DNA from: Proteiniphilum sp.
GTDB taxonomy: Bacteria; Bacteroidota; Bacteroidia; Bacteroidales; Dysgonomonadaceae
Length of the DNA: 44,323 nt
NCBI GenBank assembly: GCA_041656815.1
Contig: JBBACU010000001.1
Coordinates: forward strand, 1 to 44,323
Direction of reading: 5' to 3'
Shown here: positions 5,615-31,537 of the stretch, piece after piece
Layout of the letters: every line of letters begins with the position of its first letter
Numbering within the stretch: the stretch's first letter is position 1
Made by a program: the position numbers and the translations under genes
The notes under the pieces: model-generated
What the model saw: the letters and a program-made list of their open reading frames with translations, nothing else
Databases searched by the model: none
What the model was told of the DNA's origin: nothing

Positions 5615-6973
5615 TTACACCAGTTGAACGCGACAGTGCGCCTTCGCGTTAGTGAGTACCAGTCCGAACGTGTCGATGTAGACTTGCGATTTCGAGTCGC
5701 TTGTACCAAGGCGGTAGTTGTCAAGCTCGTTTGAGCGCCAGTCGTGCATGTACTTCGTTAAATAAGCTTCGTCCATTACGATCGCGCAATCGGACATCTT
5801 CGCGTCGTCAAATGCTGGCTCATTGATGATGATCAACGTGTATTGACCGTAAATAATACGTTGCACATCCAGGCCAAACGCTTGCCCGGGTTTGCCGGGA
5901 TATATGACTTGATTGTAGTCAATTTTGTTGATGGTCTCTACCACATCGGATCCGGCCAGTAAAACCTTCGTGTTGCTCGAAGCGTTACCCACGAAAGCGG
6001 TTTTCATGAAAGTGATCAGGTCGTTCCGGGTAGCATTCGCGGGCAATTCAAAGTCTTTACCCGGCTGCCACCAGATGCCTTCCTGGAAGTACGTGTCCTC
6101 CAGTTTATTCCCGTTGAACTTGTTTGCGATCTGCAATTTGCGCTTCTTACCCAATAACATGTCCGCCTCCGCGGTAAGCTTGTGTTCGAAAATAGCGAAA
6201 TCGGTGATCTCGGTTTTTTGCCATTTAACGTCAGCAGCTTTTGCAGCGAGCACGAAGAACGTCGTTTCTTCTGTTTCCAGTATCATTTTCTGCATGTACT
6301 GCGACCTCTTGACGGGCACGGACGCCATCGGTGCGGTGCGGCTCTGCTTTTCACTCGCGGTCCTCACCCCTCGAATAACCACGGTATTCGCGGGAATAGA
6401 CGGGATCGTGTTTTCTAAACCTCCAACCGCAACACCGTTCACGGGAACAATGATTGGCTTTCCGGAGTTGTCCTGGTCTTTCACGTAGGCTTGGAACCAT
6501 CCCTCAGCGGTTACACCATCCTCTTTATATCCATCAATCCCCTTGAAAAACAATGTCTGGTTGATTGATACGAGGTGATTGTCGGTTAGGTCAATCACGT
6601 CCTGCGCGCGTCCGTCGCCCGGCGCTTCATAGGCGGTCCGCACGGTTGTTGCCAAGGGCAGAGTTTCAATTTCATGGTACTCCACGAGCGGATTGCCGCC
6701 TTTCCTTGTTTTGCCTCGTTTACTCGCTATCGTGTATAAAGGAGTCAAGTGGGGCTTGATGACCACCACCTCTCTTTCGATAGTAGCTTTCACGATATCG
6801 CTGTCGTACTCGTTGGCGTATTGAAGCGACACGGGTTGGTCAAAAGTCACGGCACCGGCGGTTTCCGCGGAAACAATGGCTTCCGCTCCAACTAATCCGA
6901 AGACCGAGCATAAGAACATGATCGCGAATATGAAAAATCCGCTGTTTTTGATCCGGTTGAATAAATCTTTCAT
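5615..6973 (-). CDS. Major capsid protein with N-terminal hydrophobic (signal/TM-like) leader
   Basis: 452 aa, directly after a scaffold-like gene and followed by a strong terminator. HK97-fold-like features: TPLYTI near the N-terminus, YMQK, E.DMLLG, FG+V..I...G.L.II.EP.F, GLVL near the C-terminus. Residues ~12-35 are hydrophobic. Confidence 0.8.
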   Translation of the reverse strand: MKDLFNRIKNSGFFIFAIMFLCSVFGLVGAEAIVSAETAGAVTFDQPVSLQYANEYDSDIVKATIEREVVVIKPHLTPLYTIASKRGKTRKGGNPLVEYHEIETLPLATTVRTAYEAPGDGRAQDVIDLTDNHLVSINQTLFFKGIDGYKEDGVTAEGWFQAYVKDQDNSGKPIIVPVNGVAVGGLENTIPSIPANTVVIRGVRTASEKQSRTAPMASVPVKRSQYMQKMILETEETTFFVLAAKAADVKWQKTEITDFAIFEHKLTAEADMLLGKKRKLQIANKFNGNKLEDTYFQEGIWWQPGKDFELPANATRNDLITFMKTAFVGNASSNTKVLLAGSDVVETINKIDYNQVIYPGKPGQAFGLDVQRIIYGQYTLIIINEPAFDDAKMSDCAIVMDEAYLTKYMHDWRSNELDNYRLGTSDSKSQVYIDTFGLVLTNAKAHCRVQLV

Positions 6974-6996
6974 AATTATTATTGTTGTTTATGGGT

Positions 6997-7842
6997 TTAA
7001 TCTCTGTCTTTTACACTCTCGGAGAGCGTGGGTGAACGCTGTGAAGTGAATGACGGCCGAGGGCTGGGCTGCGTTGCCTTGCCTTTCAAATCCGGCAATG
7101 GGCTTTTGTCGCTCTTCTTGTTCTTTATCTGCTGGATGGCTTCGTTTTTGCCGGCAAGCTTGGCGGCTTCTTCACGCGCTGTTTTCTCGTCGTCATAATC
7201 CATGCCTTTCCAAATGTTGTCAATGATCTCGTAGGTGATCTCACCGGCGTTAAGAGCCTCGGCGATGTCCAGGATGGTATTGTTAACGTCGGCCACGTTC
7301 TCCTCGCTCAAGCCGTGTTCTTCCGCGTACCCTTTCAAGGTGTTTTCGTATTTCTGGAAGTTCTCGCGCATTTGCTTCACTCTGCCGGAGTACTCCTGTT
7401 GTCCCGATCTAAGTTGCTCGAGCCCTGCGTCGTCCAGCTGGTCTATGATGTTGCCGAACGTCTTTCCAAGCGCGTACATCAAGTTTTCACCGTTGCCAAT
7501 CATCGAAATGAATTGAGCGAAACGTGGATCTTCCGAGATCGTCTGCGCTAACCTTTCGTTCGATCCGTTAATCTGGTCAAATCTACCCTGCAGCTCTTCG
7601 CGCTCGCTCCATCCTTGTCCCGCGTATTCGAACAATTTATCATCGTCAATGTCATCATCGCCAAGATCCGGGAAGGCACCCCGGTATCTTTGTATGAAAG
7701 CATCCCTGCCACTCAAAGGGGGAGGGTCGCCAATATCTTCCTCAATTGCCTCCTCTGCAGGCGGCACTTCTGTAGGAACAGTATCGACGGGAGCATCCAC
7801 TTGTTCCGCCGGAGGTGTTTTTTTATCTTCTTCTACCTTCAT
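6997..7842 (-). CDS. Capsid scaffolding protein
   Basis: Acidic and helical with a basic/Pro-rich C-terminus, immediately upstream of the capsid gene. ATG 7842 (MKVEED) preferred over 7872. Confidence 0.65.
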   Translation of the reverse strand: MKVEEDKKTPPAEQVDAPVDTVPTEVPPAEEAIEEDIGDPPPLSGRDAFIQRYRGAFPDLGDDDIDDDKLFEYAGQGWSEREELQGRFDQINGSNERLAQTISEDPRFAQFISMIGNGENLMYALGKTFGNIIDQLDDAGLEQLRSGQQEYSGRVKQMRENFQKYENTLKGYAEEHGLSEENVADVNNTILDIAEALNAGEITYEIIDNIWKGMDYDDEKTAREEAAKLAGKNEAIQQIKNKKSDKSPLPDLKGKATQPSPRPSFTSQRSPTLSESVKDRD

Positions 7843-7900
7843 AATGAGTTGTTCTTTGAGGTTTATTCTCACACAAATAAAAACTTTTTATTCAGTTTTA

Positions 7901-7916
7901 TTTGCCCAAAATCGTA
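7901..7916 (-). promoter_or_regulatory. Putative phage late-promoter/operator motif TACGATTTTGGGCAAA (copy 1)
   Basis: Identical 16-mer at 31588-31603; both lie 50-60 bp upstream of the first gene of a virion operon. Confidence 0.65.
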
Positions 7917-7933
7917 TTAATGATAAAAATTAC

Positions 7934-7941
7934 TACATTTG
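7934..7941 (+). promoter_or_regulatory. Bacteroidota -7 promoter element TACATTTG for the plus-strand block
   Basis: Matches TAnnTTTG, about 35 bp upstream of ATG 7975. Confidence 0.4.
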
Positions 7942-7974
7942 TATTTATTTAATACAAATGGAGGATTCTACTAC

Positions 7975-8319
7975 ATGAATAAAGAGGAGAGAAACAAGCG
8001 GATCTATATGATGTGGGATGAGGCGGGACTCACGTATGAACAGATCGCGACATTTAAATTCAAGGCGTGCATGTCTCGTAAAAGAGTTGGTAATATCATA
8101 TATGGCGGCCCCGGGAGACTGAAAAGTGAATTGGAAAAAGAGGTCTACCGAATCTACCGACTGAAATTCCTGGAATTAAAAGATGTTCAAAAAGCGCTTC
8201 AATTCACCTTTGAGAACCAGCCTCACCGGCACATCACGGTAAATCATATCCGGCACATCATTAACATTGAACGTCAAAAAAGACAAGTATGTGTCGATAA
8301 ACTTAAAATCAGCGAATAA
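7975..8319 (+). CDS. HTH DNA-binding protein, candidate transcription regulator
   Basis: RNKRIY..W...GLTYEQIA....MSRKRVGNII resembles a Mor/sigma4-type HTH. Start taken at ATG 7975, with GGAGG at 7960. Confidence 0.55.
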   Translation: MNKEERNKRIYMMWDEAGLTYEQIATFKFKACMSRKRVGNIIYGGPGRLKSELEKEVYRIYRLKFLELKDVQKALQFTFENQPHRHITVNHIRHIINIERQKRQVCVDKLKISE

Positions 8320-8344
8320 ACATCAATCAATAAAACAATAATCA

Positions 8345-8875
8345 ATGAAAGCAGAAATACTCACGTACTCCGGGAAAATATTCAATATCCTGTACCCGAA
8401 AGCGGAACTGATCGATATTAACGATATTGCCGAATCGTTAGCAAAACAGTGCCGATTTAATGGGCATATAAAAGGTTTTTACTCCGTCGCCGAGCACTCG
8501 GTGAGATGTTCTTCAATCTGTAAAAAATATCCACTCGATGCGCTTATGCATGATGCGGCCGAAGCATACACGGGAGATATTGTTGCGCCTTATAAAAATA
8601 TATTCCCGGGAATGAAAGCAATTGAAGATCATATCTACAAAGTTATCTGTGGAGTTTTTGGCCTTCGGTATCCATTGCCTAAAGAGGTGGATGATGTAGA
8701 TAAAGAGATAATGTTACGTATCGAACAAGAAGATCTCCAGTGGAGCAATTTTGATAATACGTTCGAAAAAACTCCTACTCCAATTCACTACCAGAGAATA
8801 ACCCATGGAATGGAATGGGAGGTTGCCCGGGATATTTTTTTATCACGATTTAAAGATTTAACAAATGACAAATAA
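8345..8875 (+). CDS. HD-domain 5'-deoxynucleotidase (YfdR/YfbR-like)
   Basis: DIAESLAKQCRFNGH, YSVAEHS, ALMHDAAEAYTGDI motifs. Confidence 0.85.
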   Translation: MKAEILTYSGKIFNILYPKAELIDINDIAESLAKQCRFNGHIKGFYSVAEHSVRCSSICKKYPLDALMHDAAEAYTGDIVAPYKNIFPGMKAIEDHIYKVICGVFGLRYPLPKEVDDVDKEIMLRIEQEDLQWSNFDNTFEKTPTPIHYQRITHGMEWEVARDIFLSRFKDLTNDK

Positions 8876-9095
8876 TGAACAACTTGTAGAGGCCACTAAG
8901 GTGGCAATTGGTTACACCCCCACGGCACGCATCTGCGTGAACTGCCAGCACGCCATTAGCGATGATGATCCGTTCACGGGTAGAGCACTTATCTGCACGG
9001 TAAGCAATATCTGCAGCTTCGAGGTAAACGAGCTCGCTACATGCGATAAATTCCGTCTAAACGTGATTTTAAAAGTGAGGGAGGAAGAAAAATGA
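8865..9095 (+). CDS. Small Cys-rich protein
   Basis: 76 aa, CVNCQH...C...C...C, overlaps its neighbours. Confidence 0.6.
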   Translation: MTNNEQLVEATKVAIGYTPTARICVNCQHAISDDDPFTGRALICTVSNICSFEVNELATCDKFRLNVILKVREEEK

Positions 9096-9652
9096 AGCAC
9101 ATGTTCGTCATCACGTTCATCCTCGTGTACCTCTTCGCCGGAACTGAATTAGGGTATACCGACGTGCTACCGGTATGGAATCATTTCACGTATAATTTCC
9201 AGCACGGCAGCATCATGCACCTGGTCATTAATTCCATCGTGTTTTTCCTTTTTTTCCGGACGTTGCAGAATTACTTCACGTCCTGGCAAATCGCTATCGC
9301 GTCACTGGCCTCGGCATTCATCATGTCGTTCTTTTGCATCTACGATCTACCGGTGGTCGGGGCCTCGGGAATGATCTACGCCATGATCGGCATGTACTTC
9401 TTCCTGCTCGTGACAAGCAGAATGACTTATCGGGATCCCCTACACCTCTACGTGTTCTTGCTGTCTATTTCGGCCATGCTGGTAGCGGGATTCCTGAAAG
9501 AGAATAGCGCGGGGTTACTTCACCTGCTATGCCTCATCGCCGGATTTTTAGCAGCGATGTGGATTAAGAAAGGTGAGAGAATTCATATCACTTGGAAAAA
9601 CAAACATGAGAATGGAAAAAGATTATCGATTGATAAAAAATTGCGGGGTTGA
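9092..9652 (+). CDS. Rhomboid-family intramembrane serine protease
   Basis: About 6 TM segments. WNHFTYNFQH (WR/L1-like), HLVIN, catalytic GASG, and catalytic His in LLHLLCLIAG. Confidence 0.9.
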   Translation: MKHMFVITFILVYLFAGTELGYTDVLPVWNHFTYNFQHGSIMHLVINSIVFFLFFRTLQNYFTSWQIAIASLASAFIMSFFCIYDLPVVGASGMIYAMIGMYFFLLVTSRMTYRDPLHLYVFLLSISAMLVAGFLKENSAGLLHLLCLIAGFLAAMWIKKGERIHITWKNKHENGKRLSIDKKLRG

Positions 9653-11529: not shown

Positions 11530-11823
11530 CTAATTGATATGACTGAACGAAGTGATGGCGATTATCAAAAACAACCAGAACGCGGCTCCAGTGAATTTTT
11601 GGAAGGTGGCGTTTGAAATAGGCTTCCTCGAGATTAGTGAGTAAAGTAAATAAACAAGGCCGCCTGTTATGATCGATCCTATCACAATTGCAACTGCTAC
11701 ACCGATCGCGAATCCTGTGTAACCGGCAAGCCCTTGCAGTAAAATATCGGTCTCCAGGCTCATATAGATCCCAACGGCCAGGGCAATCAAAAACATGTAG
11801 AGAAAATTACGGTACTTTTTCAT
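11530..11823 (-). CDS. Small 3-TM membrane protein (moron-like)
   Basis: Start ATG 11823 (MKKYRNFLYMFLI), three hydrophobic segments, own promoter. Confidence 0.65.
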   Translation of the reverse strand: MKKYRNFLYMFLIALAVGIYMSLETDILLQGLAGYTGFAIGVAVAIVIGSIITGGLVYLLYSLISRKPISNATFQKFTGAAFWLFLIIAITSFSHIN

Positions 11824-11849
11824 TTTATTTGATTTACAACGTGATTTGT

Positions 11850-11857
11850 CAAAAATA
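11850..11857 (-). promoter_or_regulatory. Bacteroidota -7 promoter element TATTTTTG
   Basis: Exact TAnnTTTG about 27 bp upstream of ATG 11823, downstream of the terminator. Confidence 0.5.
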
Positions 11858-11888
11858 CAAATAATTTTTAAAACAGTGCCATTATAGA

Positions 11889-11928
11889 CAAAATAACCCG
11901 CCACCTGATCATTCAAGTGGCGGGTTTT
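11889..11928 (-). terminator. Terminator after the giant gene (possibly bidirectional)
   Basis: AACCCGCCAC (11895-11904) / GTGGCGGGTT (11917-11926) with T-runs on both sides. Confidence 0.8.
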
Positions 11929-11946: not shown

Positions 11947-14900
11947 TTACTGTAACTCTTCGAATTTCAATAAAAGCATGTCCACCTGGCGTTCGGCCTC
12001 CTCACCCCCAATCAGGCCGGCATCTATTCTTTTTTGAAGCATCTCGGACATCTGTATCAAACCGAACATCTTGTTTTCGTCTGTGCCATCTCGCCATAAG
12101 CGATGCTGGAATTCAACCGGATCCCGTCGTCCAAGCTGGCCGCTGTTCGCGTGAAAGCTGGTGATACGCTTGTACCTCTCCGGGTTGTTCTTCTTCACCT
12201 CGTTGTATTGCGTTTTGTAGAAGCTGGTTTTATCACTTAATTTCCACAGCTTGCTTTCCAGCACCGAAAAATCACGCGGTTGCTTCCATAGCACGTTGGC
12301 GATGGCCATCCGGCTCACGTCGACCTCTTTTTCAGGGTCCGCGATCTGGATGCCGAGCGTCACGAGATCCATCACGAATTTACCGGTACCGGCAGCGTAC
12401 CCGCGTGTGAGTGTCTCGATCACCGACGGGTTCACGTCAAAGAATGCCGGCACTACTTTCGTGCCTTCCTTCCGCAGTCGACTGTCGTCCGCGATATCGC
12501 CCCCTCCCCACACCCATAATTTGTCTGATATCTTTTGTGCCGCTTCGCTCACGTTTCTTTTACCCAGTGATCGCTCGGCTTTCGTGTCGGCCAGAGCGTT
12601 GGTGAATTCCGTGCGATAACTGGTGCCGCCCATGAAGTTGGTGTTCTGCCACACGTCGTACATCGGCTGCATGGTGGTCGGGATCGCACCTCTTACGGCC
12701 ATGGTGGTGTTGAAGGTGAGCTGATCGGTCGTGTCGTCTATTTCCAGACCGTTTGCCCAGAAAATCAGCTGTTCCGGGATCAACTCCCCGAAGAAGTAAT
12801 GAGTGCCTTCCAGGAGCGCGCTATCAACTCCCTTCATGCCGCGTGAGGCTAATCCCATTTGGGTACCGAATCCCCAAAAAGCGCGTAATCCCTGGGGTAG
12901 GGGGATCTTCACTTTCCCCAGGCAGAGGTTTTGCATCAATTCCCACTCGGTAAACATTCGGTCATCGTCATCGTCGGGATCCGGCATGAGCATAGCTTGA
13001 AGAATCCCTCCGGCCGTGAGCATCGCGGATATCCCGATCATCCTGTTTCGCACCTTGGGATTTCGGATCATCCGGAAGAGTTTGTTGGTACCCTGAATCG
13101 TCGCGTTGAAAAAGGAGAAGAGGGTGCCGAAAAACTTTTGATTGCCCTTACGGTCAAAATTCACGGAGATTTCCTTGGCGTGGATGGCTGCTTCTTCTCG
13201 GGTGAATCGAGGAGTACCGTCGGGGTTTTTCATCTCCCGGCTGGTCACGTACTCGGCAAAACGGGTAGTGAGCTCGCTGGCCTCGGTGAGCATCCCGAAT
13301 GCTTGTTTTAAGCCGGCAGCATTCCATAAACCAAACTTCCCATGCAGGATAAAATCACTCTTCTTGGGATCGACGGCGCGCTTCATATCGGTCCTCAACT
13401 GCTCGATGTCTTTAAGAAAGCTCCAGCCGGTTGCGGCACCGTCCTCGAAGAATTCTTTCATCATCTTGCCGTAATATCCATCTGAGTACTCTTTTCCCAT
13501 GCCCCACTGCTCGGCAGCTGCATATTTCCAAACAGCCGGCTGAACGGCTGCCGTGTTTTTCATGAATTTCAGCTGGTAATCCAACCCGAATTCAGCCATG
13601 TTGCTGATGCTTCCGATCCCCCAGTCACGAATAAAGTTGGCGACAGAGAAGGTGGGGTTATATTGAGTCATCATCGCGCTCATGAACCGGGTACCTCGGC
13701 GAAGGCCTTCGTTCACGTTCTGCATGAACTTGAGGTCTCCATCCACTTCCCTACCGAAATTGCGATTAAGAGCGTTAGCCACACGCTCACCGTCATAATT
13801 CTGACTGAACTGGATCTCGTATTCCTTTCCATCGCGTAGAATAATAACGTTGTGCTGCTGTCGTTCCTTTGCCGTCACTTGAGCAATCCTGCTCGCCTCG
13901 CTATCGGCATATCGCACGTTTATTGAGTTGCGTAACTTGCGTTCCTGATCGCTTAGTCGTTTCATGAGGCGATCGTATTGATTTTTGGTAATCTTTTTAT
14001 GCACGATGTAATTTTGTCGTGCCTCTATCTGTTTGTTCGGGATCTCGAGGAGTTTCTTGTTGGTCTTTTTATCCGCGTCGATTTGTTCTTGAGAAGGTGG
14101 CTCGTACGTTCGTTCATATATAGCATTTCCATCAGCATCTACTTTACCGGTATTCATGTAGTAAACTCTCTTGAAAGCGAAGAAATCGTGGATGCGGGCG
14201 AAGTCTGAATTAGCCTCGGCGAAATCCAAGAACTTCTGCTTTGTCCTGTTTTTCAAGGCAGCCATGACCGTACTCTCGCCGATACTCTGCATGTATGCAA
14301 GCGGATCGCCGGCCAGCGTTTCCCGTCCGCGCGCTTTCACCAAGGCAACATTGAAGGGGTTGTCTGGACCAGATGATTTGTCGAGCGTGTAATAAAGCTT
14401 GTTCCCAGCGATATCCCGTTCTCTCCATCCTCGCTGGGGCACGTAGTGCTGACGGGTGCCGTCCGTGTATTTCGCGTATACATCCGAGTCAATTAAGCCG
14501 TATTCCAGCTGAAGATCCAATGCCCATTTATTTACAGCGCGTATCTTGTTCCAAAGATCGTCAACGGTTTTTTTGCCGACAGCCTTCTCGAATTCATCAA
14601 TGTAGTCGTTCGGATCCACCTCATCGCCTTTGTTGTCTCTCACGTTCTTTCGGAATCCTTCTTCACCGCGATCTGCAATGTCCAGGGTTGATGCCTCAAC
14701 AATATCTTTTGCCTGCAAGTACAGGCTTACACGGTCGTAATCGCTTATTTCTTTATCGTTGATAACCTCGCCGGTGCTCTCGTCGATGATATGCCATTTG
14801 TAAATCGGCAATTGACTTAATTTGCTTTTTTTGCCGCCTCGGAGTATCGTTCTCAACGATTCTTGTAATGGCTCTATGCGTGTTTTATTGTAGTCCTGAA

Positions 14901-17900
14901 TCAGGTGAGTGGCCCGGCTCGAGGAGGTGATGTAATCCCAGTACACGCTTTCTCCCGGCTTCGCTCCTTTTTCCTGCATCAAAGCTTGATACTTCTCTAA
15001 CGGGCGTGCACGGTCAACGAAAGTGGTATATAGCGAGCTTATTTTTGCCATCTCTATATTCACGTCCTTGAAAACCTTATCCGTGTGGTTTTTGAACTCC
15101 GTCACGAGATCTGCAATATCGAGGTTATTCATACCGGCATGCAACACGGGCGGAATGGGTAGGCCGTCTTTATCAAGCTGTACTCGGAATCTTATGCCGT
15201 TGGCATCGTTATAATCGGTGATTTCTTGCGCGTATTCGGAGATAGGCTGTCCGTTATACTTCGGTTTGGACTCCTCAACATTGGGGGAATCTTCGCTTAT
15301 TTCACGGCCTTGAACGTTTTGTTGCTCATTGTACTGGTTCACCTCGGCTGCGTAATCAAATATTGATTGACCTTTGTATGCCGGAGCCTCCTCGCGGAAA
15401 CGGATGTCTGCTTTATATCCCGGGAAAATTTCAGCCATTTTTCTTTCATAATCGTTATGGTTATCCCTCTCAACCTTTCTCCTGTCCTCTTCTGAAAGTA
15501 GTTTTTTAAGCCGATTTATGTTATTCCTATCATCATAGCTTTGATCTCCTATTTTCGATTCATCTTTAAGCCCGGATGAAAAGTCAACTACTACGAGTTC
15601 ATTTGTTTCAGGTCGCCTCATTACAGAAACTAAGTCGTTTACGAAATAGCCTTTGTCGTTGATAGTCTTTAGAATATCTCTAACGCCATTGTATTCGTTA
15701 TACGTGAGGCTCTCTATCTCGTTTAGTCTCTCTATTTCAAACATTGGCCCGTGCGTGGTTTCAATCTTTTCGCCCACCTTCACGATGTTGTTATTATCTT
15801 GGAGTTCTTTCAGTATCTCATATTCTCTTGACTCACCTGGCACATCTTTCTTTGTCCACTTTTTGGCCTCTTTGTTGTATGCATTTTCCTGTCTTACCAA
15901 TGACTTGTACAAATTCCCTTCATTGTCTTGAAACACTCCTTTCGTACCCCCTTCGCCATATTTGAATAGCGATACTTCTTTTCCATCAACTGTACGAAAC
16001 CGGATATCGTTGTCATTAACGGAATTTAATAGCACTATCTGATCGTCTCTTGCCACGTCCTCTGTTTCCGCCAGTAAAGTACTACGGCGTTCTTCGGGTG
16101 TCATCGTCTCGCGGGCTTGCACGTTCCGAGCCTCTGTCTCGCCAGCGAGAGATTGATAGACGTGGTAGGGGTCCAATCCTTTTAAAAAGAAGTCCGCGAT
16201 CTGATCCTCTGAGAGACCCGTCTCTGTCTCAAGTTCACGCACACGGGAGTCGTCAGCTTGTTCCCCAAGGACTACTTGCTCTGTTATGCTTTTTATCTGA
16301 TCGTCGGTTAGTTTGTATCCTTTCTTCCTTGAGTGCTCTTCGACCGACTTTAGCACATATTTCTCTCTCTGCTCGCTGGTTAATTTCAGGCCTAGGGCGA
16401 GACGCTCGCTTCCGCCTTGGGCGAAACCCTCTCTTTCTTGGATCGCGTGCTGTATTTCATGCAAAAGGATAGATTTGGCTGATTCTATGTCTTTAGCCTC
16501 AACTTTTATCTCTTCTTCTAAGGGAAACAGTCCTTCATAGCTTCTGTCTGTAAAGGGTATATATTCCCCCCCGTTGTTGTTTGTCTCATTTATGTCGACT
16601 TGAACGAGCATATCTCTCATGCTAGGGTAGGATCGTAGCAAATCGGATGAATCCGGCAGTATTTCGGACATTAGGTAGAATTTTTTCTGCTCTGAAATAT
16701 TAAGCTCTAGATCTGGAACCTCGTATCTCCATTTTTTATCTATGCCCCGTTCCCATCCGGTTGCCATTCGTATGCTTTTTGCATCCTTGCCGCCCGCTTC
16801 CATTTGTCTTGCAACGGAAAGATCATTCATCACCATCTCGGCACCTTCCATCCGACTTGCTCCTATTTCACCGATGATCCGGAACAGCGGACTCTGATAC
16901 TCAACCTCCGGCTCAAGAAGGCCTTCATCGGTAAAACTCTTGTAATTATCGATGATATCCTGATCTTGTTGAACTTCCAAAACATCAATAAGAGCCACAC
17001 CCATTGGGTTTAACGCGGATTTAATTGTATTAATTGTATTTTTACCAATTGGGAAATTGGAAGCTAAAGCCACGGAATCACCATGTTTAGCGATTTCGCT
17101 AATTATTTGCTTGATTAGCCCGGTGGTTCCGGCATTAGCATCAAGCAAAAGATACCTGTTGACTCCTAACGATCTATCAAGGATTATCGCGTGAAGTTTA
17201 TTGCCGGTACCTCTTTTTTGTTTACTCAAAAATTCAGCGATATCACGTGAAGTACGAATGTATGTTCTTTCGCTGGAAGGACGGTGTAGAACAAGGCGGT
17301 CAAATTGATGAACGTTTATGGAGGATATGTCGTTAGTAATAGCGGTTCGATCACTAACGGTATAAGTTCGATCACTTGAATCAAATTCCGCGTATTGGCC
17401 GCTGTCAAGGTTAATAATGATCCCGGGGTTCACGTGAATGCCGGCGGCACGGGCAGAGGTCCACAAGTTGTTGTTAGATTGATAATCTGCTGTGGATGGG
17501 ACTAATCTGCCGGACGGGTGGTTGTGAACGAGTGTTATTTCAGTTGCTCCATATTCGATGGCAGCACCAAGAATTAACTTGTCGTCAATAAGAGCACCAG
17601 AAGTATGTCCAGTGGAAATGTATAATACCCTGTAATTTCCATCCTTGTTTGCTAACACTGCAAACGCGTTTTCGGTGGCTGCCGATTCAAGGTTTTTAAA
17701 TAAAAATGCAATGTCGTTGGGAGAGGTGATCTTGGCGGGTCCAGTTAAAGGTGAGCCCATGAAGTTTAATTGTCCAAGGTCGGACAACTGACGCTCGACG
17801 AAAGTTAATGAATTATCGTCGGTTTGAACGTAACCTTTTTCCCGTTGTAGGTTACCGACTTCGGGGTCAGAATCGATGGCTTCGGATCGTCTAAACGGTA

Positions 17901-20900
17901 ATGCGCCTTCGTCCCAGTTGAGTTGCAGCTGGATTCCTGAATTGGCTTTCCGTTTATTTTGCCTGAACCTTGTTTCATTTTCTCCTGATTTTTCATCAAA
18001 GATATTACTATTTTCCGAACTATCAATGTCTTGCGAGCTATTTTTTAATTCAATATTGGCGACTAATTTCTCATACGCTTTTTTAATAGCATTAACCTGG
18101 GAATCCACGATCCTCTCCGCGATTGGCGTGAGGACTCCATCTTCAACGTTACCCGGCGTGCTCTCGATGTGCTTTTCTTTCACCAGCTGCCGCATATTGT
18201 AATTTATGTTCGCGGTTGGTTGCACGTAAGTTTCTTTCCATTCCGACACCGGGATAGAGAATTTAGAGAGGGTTTTCCTGCCAAATTTGTTCAACACGGT
18301 AATATTGTCGCCTTTGATTATCGCTTGCTGTGGATAGTCAGTCACAGATTTGTCGCTATGTCTAAATGTTTCCGGCTTTCTGTTTACAGGGATATATGTT
18401 TTCGATTGCCTCAGCCTCTCCGCACTGTCCTTCAGCATATCGTTTGCCATGCGCTCGGCGGTGGAGAGTTGGATATCGATGTTGCTTCCGGAGAAGAACT
18501 CACGGATAGCATCAACAATACGCTGGAATAAATTACGGTTATTAATGCCCATGAACTCTCCGCGCTCGGCCACGGTGGCTATAAATTCGTCGGCAGCCGC
18601 GTATTTATTCCCGAATCGTTTCAGCAGCTCGTTTTGAACTTCTGAAGGTAAGCCGTCGAAAAATGATTCTAAAACAACCCGGTGGTTTTCTCCAAGCAGA
18701 TCCTTTATGCCTTTGTGCGCGACGACTTCATGGAAAAAGGTTTCCTGTACATCTTGCACGTTTTCGGCGTTGGGCAAATAGATGTGAACCTTATCATCCA
18801 CGTACCAGCCTTTCACGTTACGTCCGGACTCGATAGCTTCGCGAGCGGCGGGGTTGGTCACGGTACTCACTTCGGAGTGCACCTCAACGGGGGCGTTGAA
18901 TATTTTCGATAAACGGTCGATTTCTTCCCTGAATACCGATGTTGTTTGAGAAGTATTCGACGGCTTGTTTTCAGCGTACTCGCTGAATGCTTTTCTTTGC
19001 CTTTTACCATCGTATAGCCAGGGCTTGAAATCTTCCACTCCCACCTCCGTGATCGCTCCCAGTCCCTGCCATCCTTCTTCGTAGTTCGACAGGTACGCCG
19101 CGCGTGCTTCATCTACCGTATCAAACCCAAGCATCACCTTGCTTTCATCGAAGACGCCAGTTTGTGGATCCACCTGATCAACGACGAACACTTTCCCGCT
19201 CTCCGGATTGGGGCCGACGAACACGTCTATCTGATCGCCGTCTTTTCCTTGGGTTCGCTTGAAATACCCGTAATGGTTTTGCATCTCAACGCTCCATGTG
19301 TTTCCTTGGGCATCGGTACCGGAACGAACGGATCCGGCGGGATTTTCGATTGTGATATCGAATCCCTGCACGTTCACGTGTCCTTTCTTGTAGTTGCCGG
19401 CTTGTTTTTGTGCTTCGGAGGGATTGGGGTCTACCTGCTCACCCTCGCGGGCTATTTCGTTGTTTTTTACAACCGTATTTGCCAAATCAAGTATATCGAC
19501 TGGCTGTGCTGGTTCTCCTTTTTGTTGACTTTCTGATACTTCGATTTCTGTACTTGATTGATCATCAGTGATTGCTGTGTCGGTATCCGAAATGTTTTCT
19601 TGTGTATTACCCTCTATTGTTTGCCTATTTGGTAAACTTTCGGTTAATCCTGTGTCGGGTTGTTGTCCGTCTGTGCTGGTTGATCCTGTGTCAGATCGGG
19701 TTCCGGATTCTTCACCTTGTCGATCGACGACAGCAGGAGATCCAGCTTGTTCAATGCTCGCTTCTTGTCCTTGTTGTCCATAGCTGTTTATGATTTGTTG
19801 TAATAATTCCGGTTTCGAGAGAACGCCATCGAAAATGTCGATCTGACCGGCTTCAAGGTCTATCGCCCTGGCGTTATATGTATCGAAGATCGAGCGGAAA
19901 TCACTGTCTTTCTCTCCCTCGAGCATCAAAGATAGTAATTTTTCTGTCTCGGAATAAATTTCTTCCGCGGTGGCTTCGAAGATATTCCCCTGCATTAAAT
20001 GGAGTTTCACTTTACTCCCGCTTTGTTTCGCATCATACAACAGGTGAATGGCGTTGTTCAGCTCTTCAATCAGCGAATATTCCGACAATGATGCGTTTCT
20101 CAATAACTGGGGCATGGTACGCATCAGGGTTTGACGGACCGAGCGCATTTTATCCACCTGCCTCAATGCTTCTTCGTTAAGTACCGAACCCAGCATCAAG
20201 GTTTCAAAAAATGAACGCCCCTCGGCACTCAACGACTCACCGTCCATCATTCGAGCCACTTCGTTTGGTTGTATGACGCCGTTGTTCAACAGGATCTGTA
20301 TGGCATTCTTCACGGCGGCCGGGTTGGTGTAGAAATCATTCAGCTTCTCGAATTTCTCTACCTCCTGGGCGAGCGGTATGATGGCATCACGGGAAACACT
20401 TTTGCTTGCCTTGATGGCTGTTTCAAGGCTGCTTTGTGTTTTCTTCTCCTCGGCGTTGAATTTCGCGAAAGTGGCGGTATCGTAGGGAAGATCTATCGTC
20501 GGCACGAACACCACGCGGGGGTTGGGCATGGCTTGCACTTGTTCCGTGGTGAATCCCCAACGTGGCGCGAACCGGGTGATGTAGTCCACGTAGGCTCCAT
20601 CGGTGCCGTTGCGGGCGGCTATCTGGCCCGCCATGGTGCGATCGTTGCCGGAAAGTACTATTCCCTCACGGCTGACAACAACGGGCGTCTGAACGGCTCT
20701 CTCGTCGTAATTGTTCGCTCGCTGTTGCACGAGCAGTTGAGCTTGCTGGTCGGCCTCGTAATCGCGATCGTTCACGGTTTTCCCTTGATCATTGGTCGGG
20801 AATCCTTCCGTCTTGGCAAAATTGCGGTTGATATCGTGACTTGGCGATGGCGCCTCCGAGGTGGTGAGAACGTAGCGACCGGGTATTTTTTCCCCGTTGG

Positions 20901-23900
20901 CAAGGGTGATCACATCTTCCATGCCTTCCACCTTTTCCGAGTCGTTCCATTTTTCCGTGATGGACTGGGCGGCGGTACCGACACGGCCGGCCTCTTCGGT
21001 GCTGATCGCGTCACGTCGTGCTTGGCGATCCGTTGCAACGGAGGTGGGTTGTTCTGCCTGGCGTTGCATCTGTTCTTCTATGCCGGCCATACGCGCTGTA
21101 TTCACGTAATCGGAATATATCTGTAGTTCACTTTCAATGCCGGCAACCTTTTCCGTCTGCTCGATATTGAAGGGGTCGTTATCGAGTTTCTTTTGCTCTC
21201 TCCCCAATGTTTTCTTCATGTTGTCGACCTGCTTGATGGCCGCCTGAAGCGTGCGCTCATTCCCGTACTGGTATTCAAAATACTTCAACGTTTGCTCGGG
21301 AGTCATCTGTCGCTGATCGATCTGCCCTTGGTTTTTTCCGCTCTCGATAATTGGAAGGCTTTCCATGAACGTGACCCGTTCCGCTTCTTCGGGTGAAATT
21401 TCCGTTTCGGGTGGGATTGTTTCCGTTTCCATGTCAGAAATTTCCGTTTCAGGCGTGTTTTCCACTGATTTTGGCTGATTCTCTACCGTTTCTTGGGATA
21501 TTATTTCATTTTCGGGCGAAATATTTCCACTTTCAGGGGTTACTGTTTCCGGCTGCATGAATCCATATTGAGTCATTCCTGCCGGCTGCACGGTTACCTC
21601 GGTGAGCGATCCGTCGGTGGCCTCAACATCCAGCGTGATGCTTCCATCTTCGTTAAAGTCTATGATCTGTGCCGTGCTCCCGTCGGGGCCGGTGGCGGTT
21701 AAACCTATCGTCCAGGGGCCGGGTGATGGTTGGCCAGCCCGGACTTGGTTTCGTGCGATAAGTAGATTATCCACTTCTGAATTTATAGCCTGCTCGGAGA
21801 TAGCCCTGGCAAAGCGCTCTGATTGCTCGAGTTCGGCGATGGCTTCGGCCACGTCCATACTTTCTTCTACCTCTATCATATCGGCGGTCGTAACCTGCGT
21901 TTTACCTTCCGCGTCGATGTAATAAACGGCCTCATCGCTCGTTTCCGTATCGATAATGTATGCGCCTTCCTGATTTACATCGAAAGATAAACCTCGAATG
22001 ATCGCGACAGGTTGATCGTTGTCTTTGATTCTTCCTGTCACGAGCGTACCGGTTTTCTCGTTGACGTTTTTTGTCAAATTCAAGGTTTGCTCGCGAAGGG
22101 ATTCTTCCTGCATCGATGAGAGCTGATCGATTAATTTCTGATTTATCGCCGCTGCCTGAACTAATCCAGCGATGGCATTATGTTGCTCTTCGGTATAGGA
22201 GTCATCAAGAAAGATCTCGAACAGGATCTGCTTCTGCTCGTCGGCGTCGCGGGTTAAGATGTGTTGCTTATCAAATGGGGCTGCCGAACCCTCGAACGCG
22301 GAGTCGAATTGCTCTTCGGCGAGCGCAATCTGGTAGCGAGCGGCTATGTGGCTATCGCTGGACATTGGGTCCACATCCTCGCGTATCTCGGGATTGACGA
22401 CGGCCTCAAGAATTTCGTAACCTTTTGCGGCGTCCTGTTGGATTTCGCTGCTGTTCACAACTACTTTTCCGGACTCTTCGGCAACCTCGTTGGAGAATTG
22501 CTTGAACTCGCTCCAGTTCACGGTAGTCCATTCTTTCACGGCCGATTTCGGGATCTCGGTCACCTCGCCTGAATTCTTCAACACCGAATAAGTGTCTTCT
22601 TTCTCGCCGAGGATCTCCACGATGCCGGCATCTGTGTCGGCAAAGGTCACGTTTTCTTGCTCTTTTCTACGCTGATTTTGTACACGGTTGTTCACGAGCG
22701 TGGATCCTCCGCCAAGGAAGGCTCCCATGAACACGCCGGCCTTGGCACCTTCCCATCCGTTAAACAGGATCTCTTTTAATTCCGGGTAGTCCTCCTCCTC
22801 GGAGTAGATCAAGGGTACCAGCGTGCCGGCACTCTCGGCCACGAATTCCGATAGTCCCTCGGCGGTCACCTGACGAAGGTAGTTTGCTGCTGCTCCCTTG
22901 TTCAGCGTGCCGGGTACACTCTTGGCTACGCGCTTTAACAGTACGTCGGCTTCTTTGCGTGCGGCTGGGTTATCGATAATGTCTTTGGCAACCTGTTTCC
23001 CCAGACGCTTCTTTATCGTGCGTCCTGCCCCGGCTAAATACATTTCCAGCGGTGGAATTTCAGTGACGATCTCGATGGCGGCAGCGAGCGCGCCGGATTT
23101 CTGGATATCTGATTCGGAAACATCAATGCCTGTATCCTCGGCGTACTGCCGGGCCTCTGCAATGGCGGCTCCCCCCGATGCGGTGGAAAGGACGCCCATC
23201 CCGGCCATGCCCACGGGACGGGCAAGAGGCCGTGTGGCGGGGTGAATTGAAAGGCCTATGGCAAGGGCGTTGGGTACCATTTGTGGAACAAGGTTTCCCA
23301 CCCAGGCCCCGAACCCTTCCGGCTGTGGAATCCGCGCCATCTTTTCCGATGCATCCTTCTCCACGCGATCTCCCCAGGTGGGGGCCTGTGCTTTTTCAGA
23401 CAGATAGGATTTGGCTTCATTAATGGATCCCTGCCTCAACGCTTCTTCGACAAGTTTATAAGGGCGGTAATCCGCGTGGTCTAAAAACGCGTCGCTCAGC
23501 CCCGTCGAGACGGACGGAGCGGCAGATAGCGGGTCCTTCGGCTTTTTAGGTGCTTGGAGGCGCAGCATGGACTTCGCGCGGTCGAGCAGGCGAGGGTTTT
23601 CTTTCCCCCATCTTTCGCGGGCCTTGTGGTACGCTTCCATCTCGGCATCATATTGTTCTTGTCTGTCAGCGGTGAACGCTTTCCGGGGATTGAATTTTTC
23701 ATCCCCGTGCTTCTCGAGAATTTCAAGCGCGCGTTGGGCATCACGGCTGCTGCCGGTAAATTGATTCACGAAGTTGGCCGCGGATATTTTACCGCCCTCG
23801 ACAAGCTGGGGCACGCCGGATTCCTTGATTGATTTCCCTAACCCGCGAACTGTATTGGGCACGGGCGTGAATGCTTGTTGTCCCCATCGAGGGGCGGTAG

Positions 23901-29503: not shown

Positions 29504-31537
29504 CTAATTAAGTGCCCCGGCCTGTTGCAAGATCGATTCCTGAACATCGGAGGGAAGTGTTCCTAATTGCTCCATCACCTCGGGCGGGAATTGGTATTGC
29601 GACATTTCGGCCGCCAAATCTTCCGGCAGGCCTGAAGGTTGCCCCATCTGTTCTTCCCGCATCATCTCGGCCATTTCTTGTTCTCTCTGGTTCAAGTAGT
29701 CGAGAAGCTTCTCCTTGAACGGCCAGTTACCGACCTCCACGAGGCCTTTCAAATCGATCATGTTGTTGGTGTCGAATTGTTTCAACTGTATGAGGATATC
29801 GTTCACCATTAACCGGTAGGCCGGCGTGTTGGTGTTCTCCACGATGGATATCTCCACGTCGATGTTTTTCACGCGCTCCTCATCATAGAGTAATTCGATG
29901 CCGTTGTCCTGATCGTAGATGTATTTTTTTCCCTTGTAGTATTGTTGCATCAGCTGCACGTTCATCTTGTCTCTCCGGGTGCGGTACGAGTTAATGGACT
30001 CGAATAGATCAACGAGCGATGTAGCAGAGTTCTGTGACTGCTGCAGGAAGCTTTGTGCCGGGGTGCCGGCCGTTGGCGTTTGCCCTTGCAGCGCGCCGTA
30101 TACGCCGGAGACTTGTTCGGATAGTTTTAGGTACATGCTTACGACATTCAGAGGGGTAAATGCCTCACCAATGGACGATATGAATTCTGGCTTGGTTAGC
30201 CCTTGATTCCCTTTATAAGGGATCACCGCATCATACCTGGTCATATTCCTCTCGACGTAATCAACCCCGTAGCCGTCCTCATCTGCAAGATTCTCAACCG
30301 GCATAAATAGCAGCTGCTTGGCCGAGTGCTTCGTGAGCAACTCCGACATGGCGGAGAGCTTGTTGATTTGCTTGTTGGCGTCAATGAGATCCTTGATGAA
30401 TGGGTAGATTTTACCGACGAAAAACTCGTGCAATTCGAAGACGATCGGGGGTTGTTCATGCCAAAAGGGGTTGATGCCTTCCTGCAGTACGTCTCCTGTC
30501 GATGTAAGGTAATAGTACTTCCAGTAGCTGTCTCTGCCCCATTCCCACTCGAGGAAGAGCATATCTTCTTCCTCCATTCCCATCTCCGTGTATTCTTTAC
30601 GACGAAGGGAGTTTTCCTTCTCCAGGTCCGATTCACTCGAATTAAAATCAGGGTAATATTCACCGTTGCGCCAGTCGTGGATCCAGTAGCATTCGGCACT
30701 CTCTTTTCGCCATATTTCAAATATTCGTCCAAGCCCAGAGTATTCCACGGCCGGATGAAAGAAATCTTTTTCGATCCTTTCTTCAGTAAAGGTTTCCACC
30801 CATTGCAGCGCGTCTTCATCCCATCCGCCCCCGTATAATTGCCTGATCTTTTTCGCGCGATCCTTACTTCCTTCCGCGAACATGGCGGCAATATCGTCGA
30901 TCGGGAGATCATAAAAGCAGCCGACCAGCGTGCAGTCCTTGTATCGTGGATCCTTCATGCGGTTGTCAACGAAGAACGTGAAGGGATCTATGTAATCACT
31001 CACCACGTCAGAATCACCATCACGGTTCACGTAGTGGATCTTGGAAGCGGACAATCCGGTTATGAGAAGCTGTTTTAATTCGGCTATATCAAGCTTCCAT
31101 AGTTCGTTTTTACGGTAGAGAGCATGAAGAGTGGCAGTGAGGATATCGGACTCCTCTTGATTTTCATCCTTTTGCGCAATGCAGCTGGGGAGTGTCTTGT
31201 TGGACGACCAAAAACCAACGATGGTCCTAATAACGTTGCGAATGATGTTGTATTGAGAAGGCTCTAAACCCTGCTCACGAAACATCTGTCGCTCGGTTTT
31301 GAGCTTACTGTCGTTATGATCATACACGCGGTCGAGGTGCTGATCACCGTACACGAACTCCTCGTTGCGACGAATATCATCACGCCACGTGGAGAGGGAA
31401 CTCCAGGCGTTATGCGCGGACACAAGTAGTGTTTGATTGCGAGTAAACCCGGTCACCTCGGGTGTTAATCGCTTGTCTCGCTTGTCTCGCTTGTACTTGC
31501 GCGCGTAGGTTTTTAGGCTTCTCGTCTTACTTTGCAT
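29504..31537 (-). CDS. Portal protein (P22-like)
   Basis: 677 aa; EFVYGDQ, YNIIRNVIRTIVG, DPFTFFVD, IKDLIDANKQINKL, SGVYGALQG, Gln-rich C-terminus. Confidence 0.85.
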   Translation of the reverse strand: MQSKTRSLKTYARKYKRDKRDKRLTPEVTGFTRNQTLLVSAHNAWSSLSTWRDDIRRNEEFVYGDQHLDRVYDHNDSKLKTERQMFREQGLEPSQYNIIRNVIRTIVGFWSSNKTLPSCIAQKDENQEESDILTATLHALYRKNELWKLDIAELKQLLITGLSASKIHYVNRDGDSDVVSDYIDPFTFFVDNRMKDPRYKDCTLVGCFYDLPIDDIAAMFAEGSKDRAKKIRQLYGGGWDEDALQWVETFTEERIEKDFFHPAVEYSGLGRIFEIWRKESAECYWIHDWRNGEYYPDFNSSESDLEKENSLRRKEYTEMGMEEEDMLFLEWEWGRDSYWKYYYLTSTGDVLQEGINPFWHEQPPIVFELHEFFVGKIYPFIKDLIDANKQINKLSAMSELLTKHSAKQLLFMPVENLADEDGYGVDYVERNMTRYDAVIPYKGNQGLTKPEFISSIGEAFTPLNVVSMYLKLSEQVSGVYGALQGQTPTAGTPAQSFLQQSQNSATSLVDLFESINSYRTRRDKMNVQLMQQYYKGKKYIYDQDNGIELLYDEERVKNIDVEISIVENTNTPAYRLMVNDILIQLKQFDTNNMIDLKGLVEVGNWPFKEKLLDYLNQREQEMAEMMREEQMGQPSGLPEDLAAEMSQYQFPPEVMEQLGTLPSDVQESILQQAGALN

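Follow-up and report, generated by a model that had tools for sequence, protein, structure and literature searches.

Can a tailed phage build its head from a capsid subunit that starts out in the membrane, and does it bring its own intramembrane protease to set that subunit free? The question is raised by a 44,323-nucleotide stretch of Proteiniphilum sp. DNA (assembly GCA_041656815.1, contig JBBACU010000001.1; hereafter the window), in which the gene for a major capsid protein (MCP) with a hydrophobic N-terminal leader lies near, and divergent from, the gene for a small rhomboid protease. HK97-fold shells are generally held to assemble from soluble subunits; the original prediction for this locus was that the capsid subunits here are tethered to the inner membrane and matured by the rhomboid. 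We lean, if narrowly, toward the view that the phage rhomboid cuts the MCP leader at about Ala36. The wider proposition, for and against which we find the case evenly balanced, is that a very large group of Bacteroidota tailed phages builds its heads from a membrane-inserted capsid precursor released by intramembrane proteolysis; of its two branches, one would bring a phage rhomboid and a leader that is short and fixed in length, and the other would pair a longer hairpin leader with a protease of the host.

The MCP gene (5615..6973, minus strand) encodes 452 residues of the SU10_MCP family (PF17236, E 4e-17; 63.1 bits against a cut-off of 24.1), and its N-terminus matches exactly that quoted in the original prediction, which had called for a check of the HK97 fold. 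The AlphaFold model (pLDDT 80.9) has that fold: its top Foldseek matches are all phage capsids, including those of Vibrio phage VP1 (9in6, E 5.6e-22), crAss001 (7qof, E 7e-15) and HK97 (2ft1, E 2e-7) as well as 7z45, and a profile search of solved structures returned the VP1 capsid also. The first 36 residues (6866..6973, minus strand) make up the leader, which, according to the alignment, hydrophobicity and the model, consists of a basic amphipathic n-region, a hydrophobic helix, a short polar linker and a conserved alanine, Ala36, the predicted cut site. Two hydrophobicity measures were used, sliding Kyte-Doolittle averages and a biological scale; in 15-residue Kyte-Doolittle windows the leader peaks at 2.75 at residue 14, against a maximum of 1.33 in the MCP beyond residue 90. 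AlphaFold places helices at residues 2-9 and 12-24 and disorder at 26-39. The hydrophobic helix claimed for this protein is real, although the length given for it, about 20 residues, was too long and its core is nearer 13-18 in the AlphaFold model.

Is the leader truly part of the protein? An A/T-rich stretch precedes the ATG at 6973, which lies 24 bases past the stop of the scaffold-like gene, and further in-frame ATG or GTG codons occur at residues 19, 42 and 48. The leader aligns in register in 34 of 36 homologues, so the upstream ATG is very likely the start that is used, and on this conservation we reject a true start downstream of the hydrophobic segment (the alignment took in 36 of 38 homologue hits, leaving out one partial and one largely unrelated protein). 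A second MCP isoform made from an internal start was unsupported: the methionine found in the motif varies among homologues, and the window protein lacks it. Ala36 is conserved in at least 90% of the 36 homologues, and as the conserved small residue it displaced the A-E-A of residues 30-32, previously suggested as a signal peptidase I (SPase I) site. More broadly, the leader exceeds a hydrophobicity threshold of 1.8, our criterion for a leader, in 159 of the 172 MCP homologues with an N-terminus among the matches listed (13 fall below it, some of them from start-calling), a proportion to be read knowing that the profile used in the search, of whose 828 clusters the best 150 were examined, spans the leader columns and favours leadered hits. 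A membrane-tethered precursor kept in at least 159 homologues, many of them below 35% identity, would, if true, mean that common gut phages pass through a membrane stage when they assemble their heads; one relative, BS-TP4, is reported from 31% of 930 viromes (PMC12694917).

The net charge of the leader is +2.9 before the helix and -2.0 after it, which by the positive-inside rule gives an N-in orientation, and the early mature region of the MCP is acidic. This pattern bears on the idea that the leader does not anchor the protein in the membrane, or that it is retained, being instead an internal assembly helix resembling a delta domain, or a segment kept in the virion, possibly with lipid. The N-terminus of an HK97-fold protein sits inside the shell and AlphaFold draws the leader as a separate helix, both of which would suit such a role, but the positive-inside pattern, the conserved Ala motif after a flexible linker and the finding that leaderless MCP homologues begin at about the predicted cut site all count against it, and we regard the idea as very unlikely.

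The candidate protease (9092..9652, plus strand; PF01694, E 7e-15) is a minimal six-helix rhomboid of 186 residues, with Ser92 (9365-9367) in a GASG motif and His144 (9521-9523) in TM6. The earlier description of a minimal, divergent rhomboid about 2 kb from the MCP, with both of these residues intact, was accurate; the two start codons are 2,119 bases apart. Its model (pLDDT 94.6) finds its best structural matches in GlpG (PDB 2o7l and 2nr9, TM-score about 0.6-0.68), and the GxSx serine in TM4, the TM6 histidine and the HxxxN motif of TM2 are all in place. H38, H43, N47, G90, S92 and H144 occur in 35 of 35 representatives, chosen at less than 80% identity from 75 distinct sequences, and the catalytic residues are invariant across homologues only 16-50% identical to the window protein; the enzyme looks catalytically active. 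Lys and Arg number 2.1-3.0 each at the N-terminus, in loops 2 and 4 and at the C-terminus, versus 0.3-0.6 in loops 1, 3 and 5, a bias shared with GlpG, from which we predict a periplasmic active site here too; on the same grounds we rejected an inverted rhomboid with its active site towards the cytoplasm. In its six-helix fold, GxSG serine, TM6 histidine and charge topology the protein resembles Providencia AarA, which acts on TatA, and the GlpG of E. coli and H. influenzae, although unlike them it lacks a soluble domain. It scores 23.8 bits against the rhombosortase model TIGR03902, whose curated cut-off is 84. The rhombosortase/GlyGly-CTERM system (PMC3237569) is nevertheless similar in pairing a dedicated rhomboid with a tripartite membrane tag, although that tag is C-terminal and the phage leader N-terminal.

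Do leader and rhomboid travel together, as the original prediction suggested should be examined in related phages? Among loci with distinct MCP cores, from which those with an open reading frame (ORF) start within 100 bases of an edge or without the anchor column were dropped, the MCP is leadered at 77 of 77 that carry the rhomboid (76 by threshold and one, L102, by eye). A reciprocal scan from the rhomboid gave 38 loci, of which 26, many of them records already in the MCP-based set, have a leadered MCP within 8 kb, one is a fragment and the remaining 11 have no MCP that near; for these 11, the MCP was present in 4 of 4 records checked and the leader in 2 of 2 read. The nearest leaderless sister clade (L010-L012, about 56% identity), in which the MCP starts near the predicted cut, retains gene X, the small gene next to the rhomboid in relatives, and PF01694 was found in 0 of its 3 records (95, 100 and 63% complete; 2 of 2 controls positive). 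Judged from these sequences, that clade has lost the rhomboid as well. When 251 genomes were drawn evenly across the order, the MCP was found in 17, and at four prophage-like places (G000, G192, G170:C12 and G128) a rhomboid of the phage type lay no more than about 16 kb away. Also in favour of a link is that three genomes with scattered chromosomal head genes keep the pair of gene X and rhomboid with its Ser motif.

The leaders themselves come in two designs. A second Gly/Ala-rich, mostly uncharged hydrophobic segment follows the first helix in 54 of 56 leaders from terminase-bearing phages without the rhomboid versus 7 of 76 from phages with it, the rows in each count being kin to one another, so that a p-value for this difference carries no meaning, and leaders are longer in the rhomboid-less phages. 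Both groups share a G-hydrophobic-x-hydrophobic-Ala motif, which lies 23-30 residues from the last Lys or Arg where the rhomboid is present (38 of 38) and 26-51 residues from it where it is absent (33 of 38 matched), a comparison that is weakened by the different search patterns used for the two groups. The long leader may be a hairpin cut by a host enzyme, and the short one may be tuned to a dedicated enzyme. In the window MCP the motif reads I33-V-S-A36, followed by E-T, and satisfies the hydrophobic P4 and small P1 of the rule established for AarA, which further asks for a hydrophobic P2', accepts Glu at P1' and allows the motif to sit outside the helix (PMC2941825); P4 is often Ala in close homologues. 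The trimming of an N-terminal extension at such a motif, possibly outside the helix, is what AarA does to TatA, whose motif, however, is N-terminal to its helix, whereas that of the MCP is C-terminal to the first helix. An AarA/TatA-type motif, N-terminal to an N-out/C-in helix, would fit the MCP leader under a hairpin model only. The same authors mention a type II rhomboid substrate, Star (PMC2941825).

How might these parts, the leader, the HK97 fold, the intact rhomboid, their one-way co-occurrence and the differing leader shapes, work together? We infer membrane insertion, a hairpin, a periplasmic cut and a return to the cytoplasm. The 36-residue membrane-type leader would tether the MCP to the inner membrane with its N-terminus inside, and the segment after the first helix would turn back on itself in a short-lived hairpin or stalled loop, holding the shell domain with the signal-less scaffold and portal. 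The rhomboid would then cut at the G-hydrophobic-x-hydrophobic-Ala motif on the periplasmic side, the short remainder would slip back into the cytoplasm, and the subunit would be freed for head assembly there; where the phage has no rhomboid of its own, the longer, more hydrophobic hairpin would be cut by a rhomboid or signal peptidase of the host. A precedent for this geometry is Bacillus YqgP, a rhomboid that cleaves MgtE within a hairpin, in the outer loop that joins helices 1 and 2 (PMC7231995), although that step degrades a stable polytopic transporter and does not mature a viral shell.

A number of results weigh against this proposal. By topology alone, an N-in leader and a periplasm-facing rhomboid are predicted to export the MCP by default, whereas no hydrophobic signal is seen in the scaffold-like protein, the portal or the terminase; this is why we propose a transient hairpin. 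It is in the rhomboid-bearing phages that such a hairpin convinces least, since a polar or acidic second segment is the norm there (7 of 76, as already mentioned, have a hydrophobic one). Could the MCP, then, be fully exported and work in the periplasm, either assembling there or as a secreted form? The leader reads N-in/C-out, the early mature region is acidic and both candidate proteases face the periplasm, but the partner proteins just named carry no hydrophobic export signal, the Bacteroidetes rule for exported proteins described below is not followed, and DNA packaging requires cytoplasmic ATP, so that we consider export barely credible.

The cut site raises doubts of its own. P2' in the window MCP is Thr, where the AarA rule wants a hydrophobic residue, and Ala36 also fits SPase I: the leader has the anatomy of an SPase I substrate, with a basic n-region, a hydrophobic h-region and a small residue at -1, preceded by V, L or M at -3. 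We had thought that a bulky -3 residue would exclude SPase I, and dropped this argument when a crude scan found L, V or I at -3 in 42 of 66 host x-x-A/G-Q sites. The main rival to cleavage by the phage rhomboid is accordingly that host SPase I removes the leader after an aborted Sec export from which the subunit slides back, the rhomboid serving to clear leader remnants or mis-inserted subunits, a kind of membrane quality control known of bacterial rhomboids (PMC7231995). Such a division of labour would explain why many phages are leadered without the rhomboid and why rhomboid implies leader but not the reverse. Against it, the motif is at least 34 residues from the last Lys or Arg in 18 of 33 rhomboid-less phages, which is too far for the usual SPase I geometry, and the leaders lack Gln at +1. 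Gln occupies that position in more than 60% of Porphyromonas gingivalis SPase I substrates (PMC5837995), a preference, the Q-rule, that is typical rather than obligatory in Bacteroidetes; A/G-Q occurs near the helix in 11 of 154 leaders and, by eye, in none at the conserved site, whereas A-Q does occur in a protein from the lysis region of the window phage. On balance we think SPase I cleavage possible but unlikely.

The distribution of the two genes also speaks against too simple a version of rhomboid maturation. Among distinct terminase-bearing loci without the rhomboid, 56 of 59 keep the leader, complete genomes included, and PF01694 was found in 0 of 22 rhomboid-less records, 5 of them 95-100% complete, with 4 controls positive. 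Most of these loci belong to one clade, in which the terminase directly follows gene X; L058 and L059 have the leader without the rhomboid in another clade. In 11 of 14 genomes there was no match to a query for the rhomboid linked to gene X, and 9 of those 11 have a leadered MCP. Large clades thus keep the leader without a phage rhomboid, so the leader does not need that enzyme everywhere and strict two-way coupling is ruled out. The expected co-occurrence therefore stood in one direction, in that every rhomboid-bearing locus is leadered and the sister clade lost the rhomboid, but not in the other: in this sample rhomboid implies leader, and leader does not imply rhomboid. The conserved leader and an apparently active rhomboid bear out part of the original tether-and-rhomboid reading, which fails as a strict two-part system and must still account for the topology conflict that the original prediction had itself pointed out. 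On a 131-row tree, made with FastTree and with long-branch warnings, the rhomboid state changes only 3 times, giving 1-3 independent pairs, which is not significant; because there are only three changes, co-evolution of leader and rhomboid is not statistically supported.

With so few changes, linkage by descent can explain the pattern, and one may ask whether the rhomboid cuts something else, be it a lysis protein, a membrane protein of 128 aa or one of the host's membrane proteins, and merely rides in the packaging operon while a host protease handles the leader. The genome offers candidates, encoding the holin, two lysis-region proteins and the ORF at 11530-11916 as membrane proteins, and in phage DLP3 a rhomboid gene lies near sugar-modification genes (PMC7326821). 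We nevertheless hold this to be improbable: there are 0 leaderless MCPs beside the rhomboid in the 77 distinct loci, leader and rhomboid are jointly lost in the sister clade, leader shape varies with rhomboid presence, and the rhomboid stays with gene X after genome rearrangement.

Cleavage of the leader by the phage rhomboid would have partial parallels elsewhere. Hepatitis C core is freed by signal peptide peptidase, and hepatitis B precore involves aborted translocation. Both likewise present a capsid protein with a membrane signal that is freed to the cytosolic side by membrane proteolysis, although these are animal viruses with unrelated folds that use host enzymes, and the hepatitis C anchor is C-terminal. 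In T4, gp21 removes 65 residues of gp23 and proheads start on the inner membrane via the portal gp20 (PMC9958956). The window system would be like T4-type prohead maturation in that an N-terminal extension of an HK97-fold MCP is predicted to be removed and assembly would be tied to the inner membrane; in T4, however, tethering falls to the portal and a soluble protease works inside the prohead, whereas here the hydrophobic segment is on the MCP and the candidate protease is a membrane rhomboid. Closest in description are the MCPs of the P. gingivalis 'Nixviridae' siphophages, another case of a signal-peptide-like N-terminus on the MCP of a Bacteroidota phage, for which one sentence reports predicted signal peptides and ascribes their removal to phage prohead proteases (Matrishin et al., 2023, PMC10367356). 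The 'Nixviridae' are predicted siphoviruses, and the likeness is one of description; the word 'rhomboid' is absent from the main text of that paper and from the searched part of its phage annotation table. The available part of the paper on three cultured relatives of the window phage likewise makes no mention of a rhomboid (PMC12694917). No link between capsid and rhomboid was found in the literature searched, to which subscription journals were mostly external. The parts are of known kinds, and the pairing of leader and rhomboid is undescribed in that literature. Few bacterial rhomboids have known substrates, and a term search of a 2025 review of the rhomboid family (PMC12615303) found the words 'phage' and 'virus' absent. 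If true, rhomboid cleavage of the leader would be the first known case in which a rhomboid drives virion maturation, and would give a natural pair of rhomboid and substrate encoded by a phage. A minimal enzyme and its candidate cognate substrate exist in the cultured phages BF1-TP2, BS-TP4 and BKO1-TP3, so that the proposal, and with it the question of whether rhomboids can cleave at a motif on the C-terminal side of an N-in helix, lies open to direct test.

In these three cultured phages, whose MCPs are 27% identical to that of the window, the MCPs are leadered, the rhomboids retain Ser and His, and terminase, rhomboid and gene X lie on the same strand, divergent from the scaffold-like gene and MCP. 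Four ORFs separate MCP and rhomboid in the window. The first, upstream of the MCP (6997..7872, minus strand; phrog_22323, of unknown function), encodes an acidic protein with a putative scaffold role and no hydrophobic segment or export signal, and relatives have a gene at the same place. Beyond an A/T-rich divergent intergenic region (7873..7938) comes gene X (7939..8319, plus strand), a small basic protein that by position is a candidate small terminase and gave no significant family match in Pfam and PHROG-type profile searches. A gene of this size directly precedes the rhomboid and the large terminase in relatives, homology being judged by position and by eye; an X-like gene precedes rhomboid and terminase across the clade and survives in chromosomal cassettes. 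Next is an HD-type 5'-deoxynucleotidase (8345..8875, plus strand; phrog_318, E 1e-51), which is outside the conserved module and absent from this place in the isolates, and then a 76-aa ORF.

The genome to which the window belongs, as contig C1, is 71% complete, and contig C37 (11,504 bases) overlaps C1 at both ends, giving one circle of about 55.6 kb. In the window phage the terminase has been relocated to C37, and gene X and the rhomboid are still divergent from the MCP. By Pfam and PHROG matches to the window ORFs the gene content is that of a temperate podophage, with replication genes, a 4,102-aa polyvalent protein and a P22-like portal (29504..31537, minus strand; PF16510, E 2e-28) that has no hydrophobic segment. 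The original prediction recognised no soluble prohead protease here, and we agree: no protease family besides the rhomboid was found among the 46 window ORFs (Pfam and PHROG) or the 13 ORFs of C37 (Pfam), a scan that could miss a novel protease since many ORFs have no family match, and none is annotated in the head module of the relative BF1-TP2. Little follows from this, since podophages of the P22 type need no prohead protease to mature. The host is likely a member of the Bacteroidales because the named relatives are Bacteroides phages and Bacteroidales proteins.

In several families the MCP, scaffold-like gene and other head genes lie in the chromosome amid housekeeping genes (L410-L420 and L430-L436; genomes G065, G099, G116, G140, G141, G170, G201, G241, G259, G260, G286, G058 and G195), often beside a gene that we take, from its N-terminus, to be that for fumarate hydratase. 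A large-terminase match (E 1e-154 or better) was present in 14 of 14 genomes tested, usually on another contig or far away; in G140 one contig carries both (about 400 kb and 785 kb). Three of these genomes hold the X-rhomboid pair elsewhere. The set has the look of a scattered and domesticated one and is a candidate gene transfer agent, and we found no description of one like it in the literature searched, including the part of PMC12946183 available. Two chromosomal rhomboids linked to gene X (L438:1453 and L439:1143; 331 and 339 aa) are fused to a further domain comprising a lipoprotein-like segment and a C-terminal hydrophobic helix. Chromosomes of Muribaculaceae type (L132-L211) carry a reduced cassette of a short scaffold remnant, the MCP and sometimes a shortened portal; about half of their MCPs have no leader, which on the tree has been lost many separate times, and within 10 kb the rhomboid occurs at 0 of 80 and the terminase at 1 of 80 loci. 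These 80 loci are an unfair test of coupling because the cassettes are reduced and the rhomboid may lie elsewhere in related genomes.

Elsewhere on the circle, C37 encodes a reverse transcriptase, holin, muramidase, integrase and HTH proteins along with the large terminase, and the reverse transcriptase lies near a tail-fibre-like gene, possibly as part of a diversity-generating retroelement. The polyvalent protein (11947-24255, minus strand) contains ddrB-ParB, inorganic pyrophosphatase, RadC, LPD23 and LPD38 domains, and directly after its giant gene comes the 128-aa membrane protein (11530-11916, minus strand), a possible alternative rhomboid substrate or exclusion protein.

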